A stretch of 26,895 nt of DNA from a virus (taxonomy: Duplodnaviria > Heunggongvirae > Uroviricota > Caudoviricetes), in IMG/VR virus record IMGVR_UViG_648276657_000007, positions 1-26,895 of that record. The stretch is one strand, 5' to 3'. The position numbers and the translations under genes are program-made. Positions 1 through 23,646 of the stretch are shown one piece after another (positions within the stretch are counted from its first letter, which is position 1; each line of letters starts with the position of its first letter). The notes under the pieces were generated by a model, which was not told where the DNA came from, ran no database searches, and saw nothing but the letters and a program-made list of their open reading frames with translations.

Positions 1-1902
1 TTATTCAACTTCATTTCTTGGCAGCACATCTAGCTGTTTCATTAAGTCTCGAAATGATGGATACAAATCATCAATTGTCTGAATGAAGTCAAAGTATTTA
101 AATAATAACTTTGATGCTACTTCTTCATCTACATTTGATTCTCGCAGGAAGAGAGAAACACCTATTTTATTTTCCAGATCTGTAACAAACTTTTGGATAA
201 GAGGTTTTGACATTACTCGCTCAGGTTTGAATACTCCATCTTCGCACCATGATCTAACGACATCCACAAAATTAAGATTAGCAAATTCTGGTCGGTTTTT
301 CTTTTGACTATTGAATCTAGCCTCTATTTCTTTGTTTAGTGAGGAGGTTAAATCATTGACAGAATCCTTTAATTCATCAATTAAGGTATCAATGTGTGTT
401 GAAAATTCGTCTTCAGCAATAAATGGAGCCAAGGAATACAAATACTTTTTAAAAATACTCAGATCCGAAAATAACACTGACTCAATACAATATCCCACAT
501 GACTATATGGAGTGAACCGTTTCTTAGTAATATTATCCTTAAGATAATGATCAACAGTGTTTGTAGAAAAATCCCGATCAAAAATAACATACCACGATTT
601 GCCATTTAGAATCGAATTTAAAGTTCTCTTATTATACTCAACCTTTTGGAGAATATTATCTTTTCCTCGTAACGGAAAGAAAACTACATTTTTCAAACAA
701 CCAATTGGGTTAGTAATTTCTTTGATCTTTTGGTTAAGTTTCTTTAGATATTTTTCATCGTCCTCACCTTCAACAAATGCGATTAGTTTTGCATTATTAA
801 GTCTCTCGAGAGATAAAATTACCCCCCCCAATGAGTTTTTTATAATATCGAAACTATTTGGGTTGATTGCTTCTAGGTGACCACTTAATTTAGCGTCTTC
901 GTTTAGGAAGAATACTTCACCTTCTCCTGCGCTGGTCACAAATTGATCGTTATGACTGATAATAAAAAACTGATTGTGATCTATTTTTTTTAAATGGGCG
1001 AGAAGATTATGTTGTAGCTTTGTGTGGATGTGTGAGTCAGGTTCGTCAACAAGCAGTAACTTGAGAGGAGCATCAATAAATTCAACTGTAGATAGTATTT
1101 CCACAATTTGAAGAAAACCACTTCCTTGAAGGTGAAGATCATAATATTTTGAACTATTGATTGAAACATCAAGTTTAATGAATTCATCTTTATTTTTTCT
1201 TGCATCCGAAGGAATATTGAACTTGACATCTTTCTCAAGTATTTCAGATATGCTTAATTCCAAATCTGATATTGACTTTCTTTTAGAGATAATTTTGTTT
1301 CTAAGAACCTCGTGTGAATAACCTTTTTGGATTTTTCTCTTAATCTGAGCCTCATTATAGTACGGCTCAAATTGATGAACTCCTGCTACTGGTCTCGTCT
1401 GGTAAATAAAGATAGCTTCATCCAAAAATGCCCCTCCTTTACAAAATTCTTCCGCAAAATTAGTAAACTGATTTTCATCTATTGGTTGAACGCGGAAAAA
1501 AGCATTTTCGATTGATGTTGGGCATGTAACTTTGAATCCAAGCTCCCAGCTCTTATCATTCTCCTCTTCATTTTTTAATGTCAGAGTTATTTCAGAGCAT
1601 TTTCCTAGATTAGGATCTCTTGGGTCGTGAAAAAGATCCTCATCACTTGTGATTCGCAAAAAATCCAGCTCTTGATAATTAACATATCTGTTTGTTGACT
1701 TCTTAACTTTATAAAACCCTTTCCTTGAAGCAAGGATATATGTTTTATAACATTTCTCCCATAAATGAATAGCTTCAAAAACAGTTGACTTCCCAGCACT
1801 ATTTTCCCCAATGATTATATTAAAATCAGGATTGGGAACGATAGAAATATTTTTAAAACTTTTGAAGTTTTTTAATGATATTTTACTTATTCTTAGCTTC
1901 AT
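1..1902 (-). CDS. OLD-family ATPase-TOPRIM nuclease; either standalone P2-Old-like or a single-chain PARIS-like (AriA-AriB fusion) defence protein
   Basis: 633-aa ORF, ATG at 1902..1900, stop at 3..1. Walker A GENSAGKST (aa 32-40), Walker B LLLVDEPDSHIH, H-loop IISHND. C-terminal half has TOPRIM-like acidic motifs IAFVEGEDDE and YVIFDRDF. Sampled lines are about 30-35% GC. Confidence 0.7.
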   Translation of the reverse strand: MKLRISKISLKNFKSFKNISIVPNPDFNIIIGENSAGKSTVFEAIHLWEKCYKTYILASRKGFYKVKKSTNRYVNYQELDFLRITSDEDLFHDPRDPNLGKCSEITLTLKNEEENDKSWELGFKVTCPTSIENAFFRVQPIDENQFTNFAEEFCKGGAFLDEAIFIYQTRPVAGVHQFEPYYNEAQIKRKIQKGYSHEVLRNKIISKRKSISDLELSISEILEKDVKFNIPSDARKNKDEFIKLDVSINSSKYYDLHLQGSGFLQIVEILSTVEFIDAPLKLLLVDEPDSHIHTKLQHNLLAHLKKIDHNQFFIISHNDQFVTSAGEGEVFFLNEDAKLSGHLEAINPNSFDIIKNSLGGVILSLERLNNAKLIAFVEGEDDEKYLKKLNQKIKEITNPIGCLKNVVFFPLRGKDNILQKVEYNKRTLNSILNGKSWYVIFDRDFSTNTVDHYLKDNITKKRFTPYSHVGYCIESVLFSDLSIFKKYLYSLAPFIAEDEFSTHIDTLIDELKDSVNDLTSSLNKEIEARFNSQKKNRPEFANLNFVDVVRSWCEDGVFKPERVMSKPLIQKFVTDLENKIGVSLFLRESNVDEEVASKLLFKYFDFIQTIDDLYPSFRDLMKQLDVLPRNEVE

Positions 1903-2433
1903 CCAGACTCCCTAAACCAAATCGGATGTTTATTCATTTATATCAACAAACAGTCCTTTCTTTTGCCATAATAGCTATTAGCAACCAGACGCTTGCCTAG
2001 GTATAATCAGCTTTTTGGGGCTCGTCCATGAACAGAACCCCGATTATTCTGAATAAATACATTATTTATACATTTCTTGCAACATTTCAAATGCCTATCT
2101 CAATAAAATGTAATGAAATTTTTAGTGTTTCGGTCGAATGTATTAGTAACATCCCCCATTGACTTACATATGCTGAGGTTTGCAGCCTCTGATTGCGGCA
2201 CAAAGTTGACGGGTAGTATTGAGCAAAAAACGAACACTTTCCTTTTATTGAGGTTAGCTAAAACTGCATCGAGCTCTGAGGCCTGCCGTCAAACCTCATT
2301 TCATTGTTTCTACAAATCTTTATAGTTGATTATCAAATCTTCCATTGCAAAGAAAATTATTGGATAATCGTCTTTATTGATATTACTGTTTGATTTTTTG
2401 TAGTTAATAACTAAAATCAGGAAGAAATGAACG

Positions 2434-2871
2434 ATGACAAAAGAGAAATTATATAAATTACTATATGATATTTGGAAAAAATCCAGTCGTGCTTATTTTT
2501 CTGGCATAGGCGTTATTATATGTAATAACCCTGATAGCCTTCCCATCACAAGTCTTCGGAATATAGACCCCATACAGAATGATTCCACATTAGAATTATT
2601 ATCAAGAATTTCCAATAAAAATAGCGAATACCATGATGGCTTTCACATCTTAGATGAAGCAGGAAATGTTACTTATACCGCACAATATTTCTCACCACCA
2701 ATCATAGAGAACATCAGTTTTGACAGTTCAAGACTCGTCGGTGGACGTTTTGTTGCTGCCCTTTATGGCTCTTGCATTGACGAGATTAAACTTACTGGGA
2801 TTGTAGGCGAAAGAGGTCGTCTTTCTATATTTGAGGCTGGTAAAGAAGTTTATTACGAGGAGTTGCAATGA
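2434..2871 (+). CDS. Minimal DAC-fold (DisA_N / diadenylate-cyclase-like) protein with non-canonical catalytic motifs; candidate signal generator or sensor
   Basis: 145 aa; SD AGGAAG 8 nt upstream of the ATG. By-eye alignment to CdaA/DisA DAC motifs: GIGVII ~ GALIVI, STLELLSRI ~ SSELLINI, HDGFHIL ~ HDGAVIM, AQYFSPP ~ AACYLPLS, LVGGRFVAALYGS ~ LGTRHRAAVGIS, IVGERGRLSIF ~ IVSEETGGVSV. Stop overlaps the next ATG (ATGA at 2868-2871). Confidence 0.55.
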   Translation: MTKEKLYKLLYDIWKKSSRAYFSGIGVIICNNPDSLPITSLRNIDPIQNDSTLELLSRISNKNSEYHDGFHILDEAGNVTYTAQYFSPPIIENISFDSSRLVGGRFVAALYGSCIDEIKLTGIVGERGRLSIFEAGKEVYYEELQ

Positions 2872-3461
2872 TAAACCTTCTCCCAATATGGAAAATAATC
2901 TCAAGAATCTCCGTTATCTATGCGACTGTCTGCGGTCTGATTTTATTGGGCATATATGATGAAAACACAACTTTCATGACAGTCCTATCAGTTGCATCTG
3001 GAGGTTTGTTTATTCTTAATACTATTGTGATATCAATTTTTTTCTTTGGGTGGCGAAAGTTATGGCAATGGTTCCCTAAACTAAATAACCTACTCTTCCC
3101 TGATTTGAACGGAACCTGGGATATGGTTATTCATTGGGAATGGGAAGATAAAAAAGGCACATCCCACGCACAAGCAACTATAAAGCAGGATTTTCTTAAA
3201 ATTGGAATGGATGTCGAAGCTGACGACTCCGATTCTCAGACATTGGTGGCTAAGCCTAAAAAGGATACCGAAACGGGGCGACCAGAACTTTACTACGTTT
3301 TTTTAACAACCCCCAAGCATAAGGCAGGTTTTGGTCCACAAGATCCTTACATGGGCACAGCTATTCTCAAGCTAAATCTTAATGATAAAGACGTGTTAAA
3401 TGGGAACTACTTTACAAGCCGTAAAACAGTAGGTCATTACGAGCTGACACGCATTAACTAA
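2868..3461 (+). CDS. Two-transmembrane-helix membrane protein with about 135-aa C-terminal soluble domain; candidate membrane-disrupting effector (Cap15 / S-2TMbeta-like architecture)
   Basis: 197 aa; hydrophobic helices at roughly aa 12-30 (ISRISVIYATVCGLILLGIY) and 37-60 (MTVLSVASGGLFILNTIVISIFFFGW), followed by WRKLWQW and a hydrophilic domain; translationally coupled to the DAC-like gene. Confidence 0.6.
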   Translation: MINLLPIWKIISRISVIYATVCGLILLGIYDENTTFMTVLSVASGGLFILNTIVISIFFFGWRKLWQWFPKLNNLLFPDLNGTWDMVIHWEWEDKKGTSHAQATIKQDFLKIGMDVEADDSDSQTLVAKPKKDTETGRPELYYVFLTTPKHKAGFGPQDPYMGTAILKLNLNDKDVLNGNYFTSRKTVGHYELTRIN

Positions 3462-3776
3462 TTGCTAGTCAGCGGTTGACGGCCCCTTACTGGGGGCCAA
3501 TATCCTGAGAAACCTATCGTAAATAATGCTCAAAATCTAAACACGAGTTTTATATAAACTGATTGATTAGTCATTGAAAATCTTTCCCCTATAGACTTGA
3601 AGAAAGGTAAATGTGCGAGACCAGAAGATTCTGAGTCCGGCACAACTATTCTGTTTTTCTTTTTCACACCACATTTCGACTAAAGGTTAATGCTCCTAGC
3701 AACGTCCCTTTTTGGCACAGAGCGGACTGTCAGATTAGGCTTTACTCTGTGCTATAGGTATGTAAGCTCATACAAC

Positions 3777-4304
3777 TTATTGCGGCATTTCCGGCCATTC
3801 AGGATTTGCAGGATCCACACGACTGACCAGAACGCTGTAGCGTTCCCATGCTTCCAGTCGGCTGCGCTCCTCCTCTGTTGCCATATTCAGCCTGACAGCG
3901 CGCTCCAGCAGCAAAATCACGGATTCAGCTTCGGAAAGTAAAGTTGCCTTTTGTGATTCTGCCAGTTGATGCTGTTCGTCTGCCGTATAAATCCGCTTAA
4001 TCACGGCACCATCCTTAAACATCCATTTACCTGAGTCATCAGCACGTCGGTTGGCGGTAATATCAGGAACCTCGACAACGCTAAATCCTTCAGGGTTAAG
4101 CGTTGAAGCATCTCTGGTGATGCCGACAATTATATTATTCTCGTCGTAAACAATCTTTATCGTGTCTTCCTGAAAATTACTTACTTCCTCATACCAGTTT
4201 TTTCCGTCTTCAGACCATAACCAGATAACATCAAAATTTTTTGTCAGTTGATATTGAGCAACAGTTTTGGGATTACCCGCAGTAATATTTTTTAAATGCT
4301 GCAT
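3777..4304 (-). CDS. G: Tail fibre assembly chaperone (P2 gpG-like)
   Basis: 175 aa, same length as P2 G as I recall it; lies immediately downstream of the tail fibre gene. Confidence 0.85.
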
Positions 4305-18240: not shown

Positions 18241-19125
18241 TCAGGCGCAAGTTGGCATTGAGACCCCTTTCAGGGTATTAGGAATAATTATTTCAGGAGA
18301 AAAAATCATCACTTCCTCTCCAGATTTTTTGAGATGCGCTGTATATTGCAATGAATACTCAACTTGCGGAAATTCATTATAAATATCTTTAATTTCCTTA
18401 GCATTATCATAAGAAACAAGCCAATTTGGGAAATTAATTTCTGTGAGTTTCTTCATAACCAATACATGATCATCATGCTCATAAAAATTCCTGTAAAGCC
18501 CTTGCCCTTTAATATAGTAAGGAGGATCCAAATACAAAAGAATTTTATTTTTATCCACCTTTCCCATATTATCCATAAAATTCAAGGCATCAAGAAAATC
18601 CAAAGCATCCAGATTAGTTACTACTATTCTTTGATTATAATTTGCTATCTTCTCAATTCTTGAAATTAAATCCGCCCTGTTAAAGCGAACATCCATTTTC
18701 CATTTTCCATTTTGTGATTTCCCACCTATAACCCCCGCCTTGAGAATACCTGAACGATTTGTTCTATTTAAGAAAAACGCAGCAAAGCCAACCTCAAGCT
18801 TAGTAAACTCAGAAGGATTCGAAATAACATAGCGATGAAAAGACCATTCATCCATATCTATCTTTGCTCGGCTAATAAGTCGGCAAAGCTCATCAGTATC
18901 ACTAACAACAGATGACCAAAAAGAATAAACAGCAAAATCTGCATCATTTATATAGATTTTACGGACATACTCTTCCAATAATAATTCTAAAGCCACCCCT
19001 GCACCACCAGCGTAAGGTTCTGCATATGCTCCATCATTCAACGAGTTTTTTTCAATAACATCTTTTAAAAAGTAAGATAACTTACCTTTCCCGCCGGGGT
19101 ATCTTAATGGAGTATAAAATTTCAT
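18241..19125 (-). CDS. Dam-family (D12 class) N6-adenine DNA methyltransferase
   Basis: 294 aa; N-terminal RYPGGKGKL, AdoMet motif EPYAGGAGV, catalytic LYLDPPYY; AT-rich cargo island between cos and gene A. Confidence 0.85.
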   Translation of the reverse strand: MKFYTPLRYPGGKGKLSYFLKDVIEKNSLNDGAYAEPYAGGAGVALELLLEEYVRKIYINDADFAVYSFWSSVVSDTDELCRLISRAKIDMDEWSFHRYVISNPSEFTKLEVGFAAFFLNRTNRSGILKAGVIGGKSQNGKWKMDVRFNRADLISRIEKIANYNQRIVVTNLDALDFLDALNFMDNMGKVDKNKILLYLDPPYYIKGQGLYRNFYEHDDHVLVMKKLTEINFPNWLVSYDNAKEIKDIYNEFPQVEYSLQYTAHLKKSGEEVMIFSPEIIIPNTLKGVSMPTCA

Positions 19126-19162
19126 AAATCCCTCTCATTCCTGATTTTGTAGTTTATCAGTT

Positions 19163-19182
19163 TCTGGACATCCATGTCCAGA
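19163..19182. promoter_or_regulatory. Inverted repeat TCTGGACAT-cc-ATGTCCAGA between the ParB-like gene stop and the methyltransferase start; candidate operator or attenuator
   Basis: 9-bp perfect arms with a 2-bp spacer, about 40 bp upstream of the methyltransferase ATG (19125). Confidence 0.4.
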
Positions 19183-19194
19183 TGTAGACAAATC

Positions 19195-20739
19195 TCACTC
19201 ACTCCAAATAAGGCTTAATAACAACTCAAAGTTATCCCACTCAGTGTTGACAGCCTCTTTTGAGGGAATTAAGTGTGGGTTATGTACATACTGCTGCAAT
19301 GAACCATCATGTTTAGTTATTTGGCTCGAGAAAGTTATTACAGCCGTACATTGACTCCCCGTCATCTTTTTATTTTCCCGAAGGAAATTAGCACACATTT
19401 TAACCTTATCATGAAGCCCTGGAGTTCTATGCGGTTCCTTAAATTGTAACTTGTTTTCTTCAACAAAAGTGCTTACAGAGAGATCTATAAATATTCTCAA
19501 CAATATTGAGATAGCATTAGGGGTATTATCAAATGTCAGATGCGACTTAAGCTCATTAAATATTCTAGAGCATTTCTTATGCCCTCTAAAATTAAATTTC
19601 ACATAAGATGGCACCAACACATTACGATCTACTTTAGGAGGAGTTTTTCCCTTGCTTTTATTCTGTTCCGTACCCGAAACTTTAGATTTACTCTCTTCTG
19701 TGCCTACATGTCTAGAATAATCATCTTCCTGTTTATCCATACCTGTATTCTTTAAGGCATCACCTTCCTGTTTATCCATACCTGTATTCTTTAAGGCATC
19801 ACCTTCTGAAAGACCTACTTTCTTTACACTCACAGAGGCATCATTTTTGTCAATAGAATCATCTTTTTTCTCTGTAAGAAAAGATTTAGGCTCCAGTAAA
19901 CTCCACGGCTTATCTAAAAGAGATTCTGAAGGTTTTATTTTTTGTTCAATAATAAATGTAACCCTGTCATCTTGGCTACGAATCCTATTAACAGTAAAAC
20001 AAGCCTTACCTTTATCATCCTCTTCAATCATTACATCTAAAATATTTTTTAATTGTGCACAAAAACGTTCATAAGGCTGATATGAGTATAGAACTCCATT
20101 AATGCTTTTTAAATTAAAATAATCCCTCACCTTTAAATCACCAAAAAGACGCGTGATGTTTGTGATTTTTAAAAGTCTTTTTTTAGCAATTATCTCTTTA
20201 TATAAATCAGTATTGAACTCTATAAATGTAAGTATTTGATTACCAAATGACTGCTTACCCATCCTAGCCAGATGCCGTGCTTTTTCTGTTGCAGTCCATT
20301 CAACTCTTCCAACTCCAGCATTTTGACCAGTATGCTTTAAATTAACCCAATGCTCATATTCATCATCGTCAAAAAGAACGCAGTTATCTATAACATTAAT
20401 ATCTTTAAGCTGAGTAATCTTAAGTTTTTCAAAAGCTTTCCGTGCTTTTTCTGTTGGTGCAAGTCTAGGAGAGTGTAAAAGTTTAAGGGCTGTAACTCGA
20501 CGATTACCTTCAGCAACGACGAAAAAGCCAGATTCCTCTTCACTAGGATAAACTAATATGTTTTCAGACGGATCTAAACCTTTCGAAGCAATATCTTTAG
20601 CCAAGCGATAAATGCGGTCGTACTGCAAGTCAAGCATCTTGGCAATAGCATCACGCTGATTTTCTGCTGACGTCGGGAAACGAGGGTTATCAACATCCAA
20701 AAGTAACTTATTGATATTCATTGATTTTAGTTGATTCAT
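19195..20739 (-). CDS. ParB-N-domain (ParB/Srx nuclease-fold) protein with uncharacterised central and C-terminal regions; candidate partner of the adjacent methyltransferase
   Basis: Start chosen at MNQLKSMNINK, with SD GAGGAT about 8 nt upstream (514 aa); the six-frame ORF runs to 20808 (537 aa) but its first 16 codons cover a palindrome. ParB-like motifs LLLDVDNPRFP and FFVVAEGNRRVTALKLL. Contains an in-frame 2 x 13-aa duplication. Confidence 0.65.
   Translation of the reverse strand: MNQLKSMNINKLLLDVDNPRFPTSAENQRDAIAKMLDLQYDRIYRLAKDIASKGLDPSENILVYPSEEESGFFVVAEGNRRVTALKLLHSPRLAPTEKARKAFEKLKITQLKDINVIDNCVLFDDDEYEHWVNLKHTGQNAGVGRVEWTATEKARHLARMGKQSFGNQILTFIEFNTDLYKEIIAKKRLLKITNITRLFGDLKVRDYFNLKSINGVLYSYQPYERFCAQLKNILDVMIEEDDKGKACFTVNRIRSQDDRVTFIIEQKIKPSESLLDKPWSLLEPKSFLTEKKDDSIDKNDASVSVKKVGLSEGDALKNTGMDKQEGDALKNTGMDKQEDDYSRHVGTEESKSKVSGTEQNKSKGKTPPKVDRNVLVPSYVKFNFRGHKKCSRIFNELKSHLTFDNTPNAISILLRIFIDLSVSTFVEENKLQFKEPHRTPGLHDKVKMCANFLRENKKMTGSQCTAVITFSSQITKHDGSLQQYVHNPHLIPSKEAVNTEWDNFELLLSLIWSE
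19728..19805. repeat. Perfect 2 x 39-bp tandem duplication inside the ParB-like CDS
   Basis: cctgtttatccatacctgtattctttaaggcatcacctt occurs twice back to back; encodes EGDALKNTGMDKQ twice on the minus strand. Confidence 0.9.
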
Positions 20740-20760
20740 CAACATATCCTCTGTTGAATC

Positions 20761-20793
20761 TTTATGATAAAAATTAATTATTTTTATCATAAA
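20761..20793. promoter_or_regulatory. AT-rich palindrome TTTATGATAAAAAT-taatt-ATTTTTATCATAAA just upstream of the ParB-like gene; candidate operator
   Basis: 14-bp perfect inverted arms separated by 5 bp, 22-54 bp upstream of the preferred start codon. Confidence 0.45.
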
Positions 20794-21095
20794 TGATAGC
20801 GTAAACATAGTCTTATGAACGACATCAGCCCTGAAGCTTCAAAACTATCATTTACGTTTGCGAGGCATCATCTATCACATTGATTTATAATAAGTATCTT
20901 TATCTTCACTGCATTGCTCTCAAAAAATCACATAGATGGAAATTCCCCGTTGACACACTCCCAAGTGATGCAGATACATTTCAAGTGCTTCATACACATG
21001 ATAACGGCTATCCCCCTAAATTCTGTGCGTTTCTTTTCCCTCCAGCACAAGGTTGAAATATCTTGCGTGCAGCTTTACTTTGTGAATCTTTGTCA

Positions 21096-23381
21096 TTATG
21101 TCCGCGCCATTACTGTTGAGAATCCCGGCCACTCATCAGCGACCGGATACGTGAATTTTTTCCCGTCATAATTTACGGTCGCGCCACGCGCCAGCGCCTC
21201 AAGCTCCCATCGCTGCGGCCTGATACCGTTCTGAGCAAGGTCAACGCGGATACGGGTAATTTGCATTCTTTCCGACCGGGTCAGTCTGGCCGATGGTGCA
21301 ATTTCATGTGGTTTTAACGGGCTTCCGTTTCTCTGCTGACGATTTGGTGTTCTCAGCCCGTATTTTAATGCGCCCCTGAGCGCCCTCACGACCTCCGGGT
21401 CATTCCATTCGATAACACCGTCATCAACCAGATTAAGCACTGCTGCGGCGTGCTCAGAAGGCGTGGGAGCCGGTAACGAAGTATTACCGCCGGTGATCTT
21501 TCCACAGTTATTGACAGGACTCCGAGGCGCGGCGATGCCGCTTTTTAACGTCAAAGGCTCAACGACCGGCACTTTCGGCACAATGCGCCAGTCCGTCGTT
21601 CTGGTGATATGAATATGACGCGCGCCGAGATGCGGCGCGTAAATGCCGACCACTCTCTCGACTTCTTCCTCGTACTCGTTAACGTCATCCGACGGGCTAC
21701 GGGCAACCCTGACAGTCTGACAATCGCGCGGGACATTTGCCCCACCCTGCGCGCTGATATACAACGCAAAATCACCACTGTCTGCGGCAGCGCGAGCAGC
21801 CTCGACGCGTTCGTCAAACTCATCAGCAATACTGACGCCGCGAGGCAATTTGCGTAGTTCACGGTAAGCCCCCATTGTCGGCAGTCCAACCGTTTTAAAT
21901 TGCGGGATGCGCCACGTTGACGCCCATGCGGTAACAGCCGCGGCAGTATCTTTAAGCGGCTTACCGGTATCGTTATCGAGCTGACCATCCAGTGCATAGC
22001 CGTCGATATTTTTTGAAATGTATTTCGCGATATATCCCGCAGCACCGCCCCGGTTAAGGTGCTTTGCCTGAAAACGGTTTCGCGCGGCTCCTCTTTCGTC
22101 ACCATCCTCTTTGAGCGCATAGCGCCGCATGATTTCGATAATCTGGTTACGCTGGCGTGGATTACAAAAAAGCATCATATGCCAGTGCGGCGTTCCGTCG
22201 TGGTGTGGCTCGACGACACGCAAACCGTAGACCTGTAAATCATTATCCTTGAATGCCGTGCGCATCAGGCTCCAGATGCGGCAGAGATAACGCTGCGCAT
22301 CCTTTGGATTAAATGCCTCATCGTTCCAGCCGTGATTAAGCTGGACGGTTTTACTTTCGCCTTTTCCGACCTGACGTGTCGGGTGATACTTTGACGGCGC
22401 GGTCAGCGTGATAAACATCCCCACATCACCCTCTGCGGCGGCGTAACGCTCAATACCGGCGATGGTGTTCATCAGCTCCATCCGGCGAATTTCTGGATTA
22501 GAAATACTGCCCATCACCTTACTGATAAGGTCGATGCGCTCGCCGGTTTCCTTGTTTTCAAGGTCACACGATTTAAGAAATTCCAGATTTGCCTGGCGGC
22601 GCGCACGCACATCACGAATGGCATGTTTACTGGCATAAGGAGAACGGTCTTTATTGACCTCCCCGACAGCAATCAGTAACGCCTCATGCCAGCGCATACG
22701 CTGGCCTTTAAGCTGATGAGTCCACCATTCATCGTTAAACAGACGGGCAATGGCAGAATATGCCTGCCTCGTGGTCATCTGCCCTTTACGGTATTTTTTC
22801 CAGTAGAGCGGGGAAATATTGAAAGCACGTGCAGCGCCAGCAACATGACCATACAGGTGAGCCTGCGCCTCATCCGTAAACAGCGATTCTTTCTCGCCAT
22901 GCGCATCCACCCAGGCATCGCAGAGTTCCTCATACATTATGAAAAGCTGCGATGAGATACGGGCGGCAAACTTTTTCAGCTCCTTGTCATTCATTCCAGG
23001 CAGGCGCGCATAGTGGTCACGCTCTGCCAGAAACAGCAACGACGCGTCGGTGTTCATTTCATGGCGCTGATTAACGCGCTCAATGCGCGGCCATAAACGA
23101 CGCTGAAAAGTGGATGTGAGGAAATAAAACCCGTGCACCGGGCTTTTATTGCGCCGGATGTAGTCATAGCGTGAAGTAAACAGCGAGCGCAAAAAGTAAG
23201 GCAGGCGATTAATCGTGGATAAAACACCTTGCACCTGACGCATCTCGTCACGTGTAAGGGGTCTTTCGCGCCCGACGGCCTCGCGTGGCGCGTTCCATGC
23301 ATAAGCACCGGTAAACGTCTCACCGGTGCCTGCGGCAAATGCTGACGGAGGGACAAAACGCCCGGAGGCTTTAACGGCCAT
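21096..23381 (-). CDS. A: Rolling-circle replication initiator (P2 gpA-like)
   Basis: Start at MAVKASGRFVPPSAFAAGTGE (761 aa); the six-frame ORF has a 14-codon extension; contains the HWHMM metal-binding motif of rolling-circle initiators. Confidence 0.9.
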   Translation of the reverse strand: MAVKASGRFVPPSAFAAGTGETFTGAYAWNAPREAVGRERPLTRDEMRQVQGVLSTINRLPYFLRSLFTSRYDYIRRNKSPVHGFYFLTSTFQRRLWPRIERVNQRHEMNTDASLLFLAERDHYARLPGMNDKELKKFAARISSQLFIMYEELCDAWVDAHGEKESLFTDEAQAHLYGHVAGAARAFNISPLYWKKYRKGQMTTRQAYSAIARLFNDEWWTHQLKGQRMRWHEALLIAVGEVNKDRSPYASKHAIRDVRARRQANLEFLKSCDLENKETGERIDLISKVMGSISNPEIRRMELMNTIAGIERYAAAEGDVGMFITLTAPSKYHPTRQVGKGESKTVQLNHGWNDEAFNPKDAQRYLCRIWSLMRTAFKDNDLQVYGLRVVEPHHDGTPHWHMMLFCNPRQRNQIIEIMRRYALKEDGDERGAARNRFQAKHLNRGGAAGYIAKYISKNIDGYALDGQLDNDTGKPLKDTAAAVTAWASTWRIPQFKTVGLPTMGAYRELRKLPRGVSIADEFDERVEAARAAADSGDFALYISAQGGANVPRDCQTVRVARSPSDDVNEYEEEVERVVGIYAPHLGARHIHITRTTDWRIVPKVPVVEPLTLKSGIAAPRSPVNNCGKITGGNTSLPAPTPSEHAAAVLNLVDDGVIEWNDPEVVRALRGALKYGLRTPNRQQRNGSPLKPHEIAPSARLTRSERMQITRIRVDLAQNGIRPQRWELEALARGATVNYDGKKFTYPVADEWPGFSTVMART

Positions 23382-23646
23382 ATGAGCCAAAAGCCTCTGA
23401 ACAACGCTTGCTGAGTTGCTCAACCTGCGCGTTTAAATCAGCAAAAGACTTTGCGCTTCCGGTCAGAATATCGTGATGCATCAGGCCGGAAACGAGCTGG
23501 CTTAATTTCGGGTAATAACCAACCACCGCCAGCCATTCCTGACCGGCGTTTTTACCGCTTTCAGCTCTCTTTTTCTCGTGGAGAATAAACTGAAAGCTGT
23601 CACTGGTAACGACATAACGTTCGCCAATTTCAATACGAATACTCAT
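23371..23646 (-). CDS. Hypothetical early-region protein (P2 orf83 position)
   Basis: 91-aa ORF overlapping the A start by 11 nt. Confidence 0.6.
   Translation of the reverse strand: MSIRIEIGERYVVTSDSFQFILHEKKRAESGKNAGQEWLAVVGYYPKLSQLVSGLMHHDILTGSAKSFADLNAQVEQLSKRCSEAFGSYGR

Follow-up and report, generated by a model that had tools for sequence, protein, structure and literature searches.

A P2-like prophage with a probable Panoptoo/PanDA-type guard system among its cargo

The two overlapping genes panS and panE most probably constitute a Panoptoo/PanDA-type guard system that is carried as cargo in a P2-like prophage, and we put the probability of this reading at roughly 0.8. They lie near one end of the window, by which we mean the whole 26,895-nucleotide stretch of DNA that was analysed (IMG/VR record IMGVR_UViG_648276657_000007). 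The kind of system is already known; it has been described, it has been named twice and a structure has been deposited, and it is not a new family. The Panoptoo preprint (Ragucci, Haley, Kranzusch; bioRxiv, 11 Aug 2026; PMC13640738) presents in its abstract a minimal diadenylate cyclase (DAC), PanS, with an S2TM-beta effector, PanE, and reports a 1.5 Å structure of PanS. According to the abstract of the PanDA preprint (Nabhani et al.; bioRxiv, 11 Aug 2026; PMC13640721), the 3'3'-c-di-AMP that PanS produces constitutively keeps PanE repressed, the phage sponge Acb4 causes PanE to permeabilise the membrane, and phage defence needs both genes. Across the two abstracts, the PanS product is 3'3'-c-di-AMP or 3'3'-cUA, made constitutively and repressing PanE. 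A first-pass annotation, made from the letters of the window, had read the first gene as a DAC-fold protein and the second as two N-terminal transmembrane (TM) helices followed by a soluble Cap15-like domain, and had proposed a Panoptes-like signalling or decoy-signalling logic. These readings stand, the last of them in agreement with what the two abstracts say of homologues, so that a reading of raw sequence recovered an architecture and a decoy idea that did not appear in the specialist literature until August 2026. The accompanying suggestion that no anti-phage system built on a DAC fold had been characterised, and that the pair may be a new family, has to be given up. Panoptoo/PanDA and PDB entry 37jy already describe the pair, an earlier classification being the very outcome that the annotation had named as counting against its claim, and DAC domains had been validated in defence earlier still, within CBASS-DAC/DS-2.

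The features of the locus are collected in Table 1. The overlap of the two genes by the four letters ATGA, which had been noticed at first reading, is confirmed by the sequence. Both reading frames are intact, and PanS is found unaltered in 82 public contigs and PanE in 102, mostly from E. coli. PanS has the UniProt accession A0A6L7F7F4; WP_074503677 is a near variant of PanE, and WP_112922947 is a relative at 99%. The pair and its cargo region have a GC content of 35%, against 53% in the adjacent phage genes. The pair is more than a product of chance, given this exact recurrence, the pairing of distant homologues described below and long frames that would be unexpected at 35% GC. The expression signals are more tentative. 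Shuffled sequence gives as many sigma-70-like sites as the upstream region does, so the candidate promoter counts for little, and it falls within the upstream part that is conserved across genera. The two stem-loops past the panE stop, which likewise sit within the cassette conserved across genera, are proposed as a possible terminator with similar reserve: their RNA fold (-21.4 kcal/mol, z=-1.84) is not significant, they have no U-tract and a terminator scan made no call there. An Rfam search of the window gave no match.

Table 1. Features of the panS-panE locus and of the surrounding prophage, in window coordinates
Feature	Position	Strand	Description and basis
ABC-type ATPase fused to DUF4435	1-1902	-	633 aa; Pfam; weak PADLOC matches to NsnB, AriAB, PtuA and GajA
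Mobile two-gene cassette	2188..3629	+	~1.44 kb; upstream control region, panS, panE and downstream hairpins; blastn
Candidate sigma-70 promoter	2390..2417	+	TTGATT, 16 nt spacer, TAAAAT; consensus scan, 9/12 matches
panS Shine-Dalgarno-like site	2419-2424	+	AGGAAG; read from sequence
panS	2434..2871	+	145 aa; predicted stand-alone minimal diadenylate-cyclase-fold synthase
panE Shine-Dalgarno-like site	2857-2862	+	GAGGAG; read from sequence
panS-panE stop/start overlap	2868..2871	+	ATGA; translational coupling; read from sequence
panE	2868..3461	+	197 aa; predicted effector with 2TM and Cap15-type cyclic-dinucleotide receptor beta-barrel
PanE receptor domain	residues 77-195 (nt 3096-3452)	+	Pfam PF18153
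Two adjacent stem-loops	3459..3498	+	just past panE stop; possible terminator (tentative)
Tail-fibre assembly protein G	3777-4304		P2-like gene
PD-Lambda-5	18241-20808		second P2 hotspot; very strong PADLOC matches
Replication protein A	21096-23423		P2-like gene
Integrase ORF	starts 25885		P2-like prophage

Compared with the protein sequences of the PDB, PanS has a sole match, 37jy 'Panoptoo PanS synthase', at E=1.6e-30 for the single sequence; the PanS family profile meets the same entry at E=3.6e-46. The alignment runs end to end, residues 6-142 of PanS on 9-145 of 37jy, with 41% identity over 138 aa. The invariant motifs HDGFH, QYFSPP and GGR are kept, whereas the clade studied here, which belongs to the Enterobacterales, has GGRF for GGRY and E126 for N. 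An AlphaFold model built on the 31-sequence family alignment (pLDDT 93.7) depicts a single domain with no sensor module, and the best 50 Foldseek matches of this model in the PDB are all DacM, CdaA, DacA or DisA (probability 1.0, query-normalised TM 0.58-0.70, 18-26% identity). The Pfam DAC profile (PF02457) matches PanS at E=3.6e-5 with 23.8 bits, which is below the 27-bit cut-off; the match spans profile positions 27-118 of 119 and is specific, and 20 of the 31 family members match the profile at E<=0.01 (best E=1.6e-5). At E<=1, Pfam returns for PanS only DAC and a spurious Big_3_2 match, with the polymerase-palm families absent. PADLOC v2 (2023) and NCBIfam hold no model for PanS, and the NCBI name of the gene is simply 'diadenylate cyclase'. 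Since, among PDB sequences, the family profile finds canonical CdaA at no better than E=0.57, the DAC relationship rests on the sub-threshold Pfam match together with the fold search; MYST acetyltransferase matches of the same profile (PDB, E about 0.02) were rejected as spurious. We conclude that PanS, as modelled, has a DAC fold and is a divergent branch of that superfamily. When 1.84 billion cluster representatives were searched exhaustively with the profile, only 330 clusters matched at E<=1e-3, too few for the widespread canonical DACs, which suggests that the PanS family is a small, separate clade.

The motifs of PanS are GIGVII (24-29), HDGFHI (67-72), AQYFSP (83-88), LVGGRFVAALYGS (101-113) and IVGERG (123-128). 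Every DAC motif that the first-pass annotation had listed is present, and those set against CdaA below correspond to it as claimed; the spacing that it gave as SxELLxRI is in fact SxxELLxRI, the sequence reading S51-T-L-E-L-L-S-R-I. For a residue-level comparison, the family profile was aligned with Listeria CdaA, the reference sequence of which was verified beforehand against PDB 6hvl/4rv7. In this alignment H67-D68-G69 of PanS fall on H170-D171-G172 of CdaA, Y85 on Y187, and G103-G104-R105-F106-V107 on G201-T202-R203-H204-R205. Nineteen residues are invariant among the 31 members (F22, G24, G26, H67, D68, G69, F70, H71, Q84, Y85, F86, S87, P88, G103, G104, R105, A109, G112 and S113), and these include the H-D-G that binds metal, the Tyr that stacks and the leading Arg of RHR. 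PanS thus shares with the canonical enzymes CdaA, DacA, DisA and DacM the fold, the HDG and the equivalents of Tyr187 and Arg203, but it has none of their TM, coiled-coil or HhH partner domains and is only 18-26% identical to them. We do not place it among the canonical DACs of PF02457, given the 23.8 bits against 27, DGF in place of DGA and RFV in place of RHR. Across the family the RHR motif reads RFV or RYL, and the position aligned with E224, a metal ligand in CdaA, varies among the members. Because of the RFV and the unconserved E224 position, catalysis by PanS is inferred from its relatives, not from the canonical motifs.

Two stretches of PanE, residues 9-30 and 36-62, are hydrophobic, exceeding 1.6 on the Kyte-Doolittle scale over 19 residues, and they agree with helices 5-29 and 36-68 of an AlphaFold model (pLDDT 85.5) in which an eight-stranded domain (82-195) follows. 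The Pfam Cap15_CD_rec profile (PF18153) matches at E=8.4e-20, with 71.7 bits against a cut-off of 31.2, and the PADLOC models of CBASS '2TM' effectors match up to E=3.1e-31. A PDB sequence search with PanE returned noise only. In the Foldseek search of the PDB, the Yersinia Cap15 receptor entries 7n34 and 7n35 are the sole strong matches (target TM 0.85-0.88, and 0.86 for 7n34; rmsd 2.3-2.4 Å), and the next matches have E>5e-3. Hydropathy, model, profiles and fold search are therefore in accord, and PanE is a predicted 2TM effector with a Cap15-type receptor domain.

The two genes form a conserved operon. With one genome scanned per species, relatives of PanS were found at 29 loci spread over Gamma-, Beta- and Alphaproteobacteria, Bacteroidota and Acidobacteria. 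A gene that matches the PanE profile directly adjoins the PanS relative in 24 of the 29, and in two others (L036 and L040) Pfam recognises a Cap15_CD_rec gene upstream of it, which brings the pair to 26/29 species loci; this bears out the co-occurrence check that had been proposed for the gene pair. Distant relatives of PanS (33-52% identity), from metagenomic as well as genomic loci, each have a Cap15_CD_rec gene directly after them, usually with a 4-nt overlap, as at L007, L010, L041 and L044, and the pair is kept in homologues down to 28% identity. In two cluster representatives, P0320 and P0343, Cap15_CD_rec and DAC are fused into a single polypeptide. At the nucleotide level, the stretch 2188-3629 recurs with 88-92% identity in Klebsiella oxytoca (L012), Cedecea colo (L013) and Serratia (L041), the Serratia blastn match covering window positions 2234-3624. 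Because these copies lie without the flanking P2 genes and without the ATPase gene, we take the mobile unit to be the cassette of about 1.44 kb. P2 tail genes were looked for near the pair in other species and none were found. A megablast of positions 1903-3700 against 5,426 complete E. coli genomes gave no match, nor did PanS find one by tblastn among 50,697 phage records.

The window comprises most of a P2-like prophage, as judged from Pfam matches of its ORFs and from the annotation of near-identical loci (99.7% identical over positions 1-3800). Besides the genes given in Table 1, it encodes tail fibre H, baseplate I/J/W, lysis, capsid and terminase functions. Intact copies carry the cargo between tail sheath FI and G, that is, in the tail hotspot, and L001, what is left of a decayed P2, has kept the cassette. 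Within the cargo region, 1-3700, the only genes are the ATPase gene, panS and panE. In E. coli the pair has other defence genes for neighbours, in a defence hotspot of the prophage. The 633-aa ATPase was considered as a third part of the module and rejected, because no locus outside E. coli has a homologue of it and the conserved cassette begins only at 2188. Its PDB matches are to generic ABC-ATPase N-termini only, and from its sequence it is a separate, unclassified OLD/PARIS-like candidate. PARIS is triggered by a phage anti-restriction protein.

Over the loci as a whole, the pair occurs in defence hotspots and beside CBASS, SIR2 and PD-Lambda-5 genes. A CD-NTase gene lies within 4-6 kb of the pair in 15 of the 29 species loci, as well as in L007, L011 and L044. 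A type II CBASS operon of Chryseobacterium has the effector-DAC pair placed between its Cap2 and Cap3 genes, and the pair comes after CD-NTase-Cap2-Cap3 in Flavobacterium and Kaistella. Such linkage would be expected of a guard against anti-CBASS proteins, and it lends independent support to a guard role.

Among known systems, Panoptoo/PanDA offers the closest likeness, having two genes of which a stand-alone minimal DAC synthase comes first and an S-2TM-beta/Cap15-type effector second, to judge from the abstracts. The locus shows PanS homology, a DAC fold with the core residues and an adjacent S-2TM-beta PanE, and it differs in that the copy here is cargo of a P2-prophage hotspot. Type I Panoptes (Nature 2025; PMC12657218, PMC12657230), which signals by inhibition as summarised there, resembles it in logic: a sensor-less cyclase (OptS, an mCpol), a decoy nucleotide that restrains the 2TM-beta effector OptE, and sponges as triggers. 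The generator is a Cas10-palm mCpol in that system, whereas it has a DAC fold here; the 50 best fold matches of PanS are all DACs and Pfam finds no palm family in it, which sets the locus outside type I Panoptes. The signal of Panoptes was reportedly 2',3'-c-di-AMP, as against the 3'3' products of Panoptoo/PanDA. CBASS Cap15 (Yersinia aleksiciae, PDB 7n34) has the same two TM helices and cyclic-dinucleotide-binding beta-barrel, and CBASS genes are frequently genomic neighbours; Cap15 is activated by its ligand, however, whereas PanE would be expected from its homologues to be repressed. The locus is not itself CBASS, as the cargo region 1-3700 contains no CD-NTase (SMODS/DncV-like) gene. In CBASS-DAC (DS-2 of DefensePredictor; Liu-DS2, NAR 2026), phage defence depends on a DAC-domain protein. 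That system has three genes (patatin phospholipase, cGAS and DAC), with activation signalling proposed, and the cargo region lacks the patatin and cGAS genes.

Homology (41% identity to the crystallised PanS) and the preprint abstracts suggest to us how the pair would work. PanS, which has no sensor domain, would be expected to make 3'3'-c-di-AMP or 3'3'-cUA continuously. A single-domain protein of 145 aa with no sensor fits such constitutive activity. E. coli is not known to signal with c-di-AMP itself, and the nucleotide would therefore serve this module alone. PanE would sit in the inner membrane by way of its two modelled N-terminal helices, and its Cap15-type beta-barrel would bind the PanS nucleotide, the bound state being the inactive one. 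Phages carry sponges or nucleases aimed at cyclic-nucleotide immunity; by analogy with the Acb4 of the PanDA abstract, the sponge of an infecting phage, or possibly a nuclease, would deplete this decoy signal. PanE left without ligand may then permeabilise the membrane, and the infection would be aborted.

The main rival to this guard reading is activation of the CBASS type, in which PanS would be silent until infection and its cyclic dinucleotide would then switch on membrane disruption by PanE. We consider this unlikely, although the fold itself offers no decision; the sign of regulation is not readable from PanE because the Cap15 of CBASS is ligand-activated, not repressed. The Cap15 receptor fold is a CBASS effector fold, matched as such by the PADLOC 2TM models, many PanS/PanE pairs lie in CBASS operons, and the signal ascribed to the DAC of CBASS-DAC/DS-2 is proposed to be an activating one and a target of destruction by Acb1. 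Against this, the abstracts of both preprints give constitutive synthesis and negative regulation of PanE for the same architecture, and the analogous mCpol and 2TM-beta pair of Panoptes signals by inhibition, as far as its published summaries go. PanS moreover has no domain with which to sense infection, and its closest solved relative is the Panoptoo enzyme.

A constitutive maker of a repressor alongside a repressed toxic effector, as the abstracts describe, is mechanistically also a toxin-antitoxin circuit, and the pair could accordingly be read as an addiction module that stabilises the cassette or prophage, with PanE as toxin, PanS (via a short-lived product) as antitoxin and defence as a secondary effect. 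The movement of a 1.44-kb unit between genera and its retention in the decayed P2 remnant would suit such a module. Its location in defence hotspots, beside CBASS, SIR2 and PD-Lambda-5 genes, and the dependence of phage defence on both genes given in the PanDA abstract argue the other way, and we regard addiction as the primary role as quite improbable; it is in any case compatible with the guard mechanism, being the same circuit viewed from the other side. It is very improbable that PanS is a housekeeping c-di-AMP synthase beside an unrelated membrane protein, or that the pair is decayed and non-functional. The NCBI name and the metabolic settings of some relatives (L037-L039 and several fusions) point in that direction, but the two frames are unbroken and recur unchanged in 82 and 102 contigs, the genes stay paired, with their 4-nt overlap, from one phylum to another, they are prophage cargo of high AT content, and the family has only 330 clusters among 1.84 billion, which we read as a separate clade.

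If the guard reading is correct, a P2-like prophage provides its host with a tripwire for superinfecting phages that bring sponges for cyclic nucleotides, and the CBASS-embedded and fused pairs would suggest an integrated unit of CBASS plus tripwire, possibly with control of the DAC by Cap2/Cap3. The locus alone raises no new question, and what it adds is modest: the setting as prophage cargo, and the variants of the pair that are fused or embedded in CBASS. Both could inform studies of how tripwires are deployed alongside the immunity that they guard. It also serves as an annotated natural instance, with cassette boundaries, P2 hotspot, neighbouring defence genes and family-conserved residues laid out. 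Two aspects might be undescribed, the E. coli prophage-hotspot cassette and the building of the Bacteroidota pair into type II CBASS or fusions, but we hold this as a doubtful possibility. By term counts in the preprint text available, 'phage P2' and 'hotspot' occur in neither preprint, 'prophage' occurs once in PanDA and never in Panoptoo, and 'Cap2', 'Cap3' and 'Bacteroid*' are absent from both.

We note, finally, that the distant PanS-like loci L037-L039 lie in metabolic contexts, not defence, as do several fusions of PanS-like domains with a methyltransferase, a TPP enzyme or a metallophosphatase. PanS-like DACs probably include a non-defence clade.

The pairing of a minimal DAC-fold synthase with a 2TM-Cap15 effector recurs in Bacteroidota, where the gene order is reversed, with the effector first and the DAC second, and where the pair is part of type II CBASS operons. 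The Chryseobacterium operon reads patatin, CD-NTase, Cap2, 2TM-Cap15, DAC and Cap3, so that the pair lies within it, and the Flavobacterium and Kaistella operons read CD-NTase, Cap2, Cap3, 2TM-Cap15 and DAC. Across the one-genome-per-species scan, 15 of 29 loci contain a CD-NTase gene at a distance of at most 4 kb. Term counts on the text of the Panoptoo (PMC13640738) and PanDA (PMC13640721) preprints returned zero occurrences of "Cap2", "Cap3" or "Bacteroid*". The coordinates of these and the other features are collected in the table.

Coordinates of features in the window and at loci of PanS relatives (L-numbers)
Feature	Sequence	Position	Strand	Description
Effector-DAC pair, Bacteroidota	L032	3370-4438		
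Effector-DAC pair, Bacteroidota	L034	3382-4435		
Effector-DAC pair, Bacteroidota	L036	3360-4447		
Effector-DAC pair, Bacteroidota	L040	3318-4381		
PanS with a PanE-like gene on each side	L022	3156-3923		
PanS with a PanE-like gene on each side	L023/L024	3195-3962		
PanS with a PanE-like gene on each side	L033	3-449		
panS/panE cassette, Serratia marcescens	L041-L043	7455-8375		
P2 remnant, E. coli GCA_028028825.1	L001	4843-12371		
ATPase-DUF4435 gene	window	1-1902	-	633 aa; ABC-type ATPase (SMC_N/AAA_15/AAA_21) fused to DUF4435
Intergenic region, ATPase gene to panS	window	1903-2433	divergent	531 bp
ORF	window	2113-2325	+	70 aa; inside the intergenic region
PD-Lambda-5	window	18241-19125 and 19195-20808	-	two genes; PADLOC

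Among the 330 cluster representatives from the profile search, P0320 (393 aa) and P0343 (382 aa) combine Cap15_CD_rec at the N-terminus with a DAC domain at the C-terminus in a single predicted polypeptide, and this putative effector-synthase fusion supports a functional coupling of the two activities. In Sphingomonas and an Acidobacteria MAG, a PanE-like gene is found on each side of PanS. The upstream copies match the PanE profile (A2; E=1e-15 to 5e-28), and the one copy scanned against Pfam, that of L022, had no match. The most distant PanS-like DACs, those of L037, L038 and L039 (28-34% identity), have no Cap15 neighbor in their loci. In L037, the locus of the three that was scanned against Pfam, the DAC gene has a class IV aminotransferase gene on one side and a gene for an FMN-dependent dehydrogenase on the other, and related proteins (P0262, P0310, P0277, P0291 and P0340) carry a fused SAM methyltransferase, metallophosphatase or TPP-enzyme domain. 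Judged from these contexts, the distant proteins look like the same minimal DAC fold put to a metabolic, nondefense use.

The ATPase-DUF4435 gene is transcribed divergently from panS. Its DUF4435 match (26.9 bits) is marginally below the cut-off, its PDB matches are confined to generic ATPase N-termini, and PADLOC returned weak matches to NsnB (4e-20), mad3, fused AriAB (2.8e-18), PtuA and GajA, with no good fit to a model. We regard it as a candidate single-gene OLD/PARIS-like defense system. No homologue was found at the non-E. coli PanS loci, and it is therefore independent of the panS/panE pair. Only the part of the intergenic region from position 2188 on accompanies the cassette in other genera; an Rfam search of the whole region gave no match. 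A complete PD-Lambda-5 (A subunit, E=1.6e-167; B subunit, a D12-class adenine methyltransferase, E=7.9e-122; PADLOC) is found in the second P2 cargo hotspot, which separates the portal/terminase region from replication gene A. Together with panS/panE, this brings the recognized defense systems of the prophage to at least two, in addition to the ATPase-DUF4435 candidate.

The exact PanS and PanE proteins occur in 82 and 102 public contigs, respectively. A megablast search with window 1903-3700 against 5,426 complete RefSeq E. coli genomes found no match, nor did a tblastn search with PanS against 50,697 sequenced phage records. As judged by these searches, the cassette is rare and is without a representative among sequenced P2-like phages. 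In Serratia marcescens, the same cassette (88% nucleotide identity) occupies a chromosomal site adjoining a SIR2_2-domain gene, outside any prophage. The E. coli locus L001 is a decayed P2 remnant that lacks tail and capsid genes and still has Ogr, the ATPase, panS, panE and tail-fiber assembly G, together with a truncated fiber gene, a repressor-like gene and an integrase; here the phage seems to be decaying while its defense cargo is kept.
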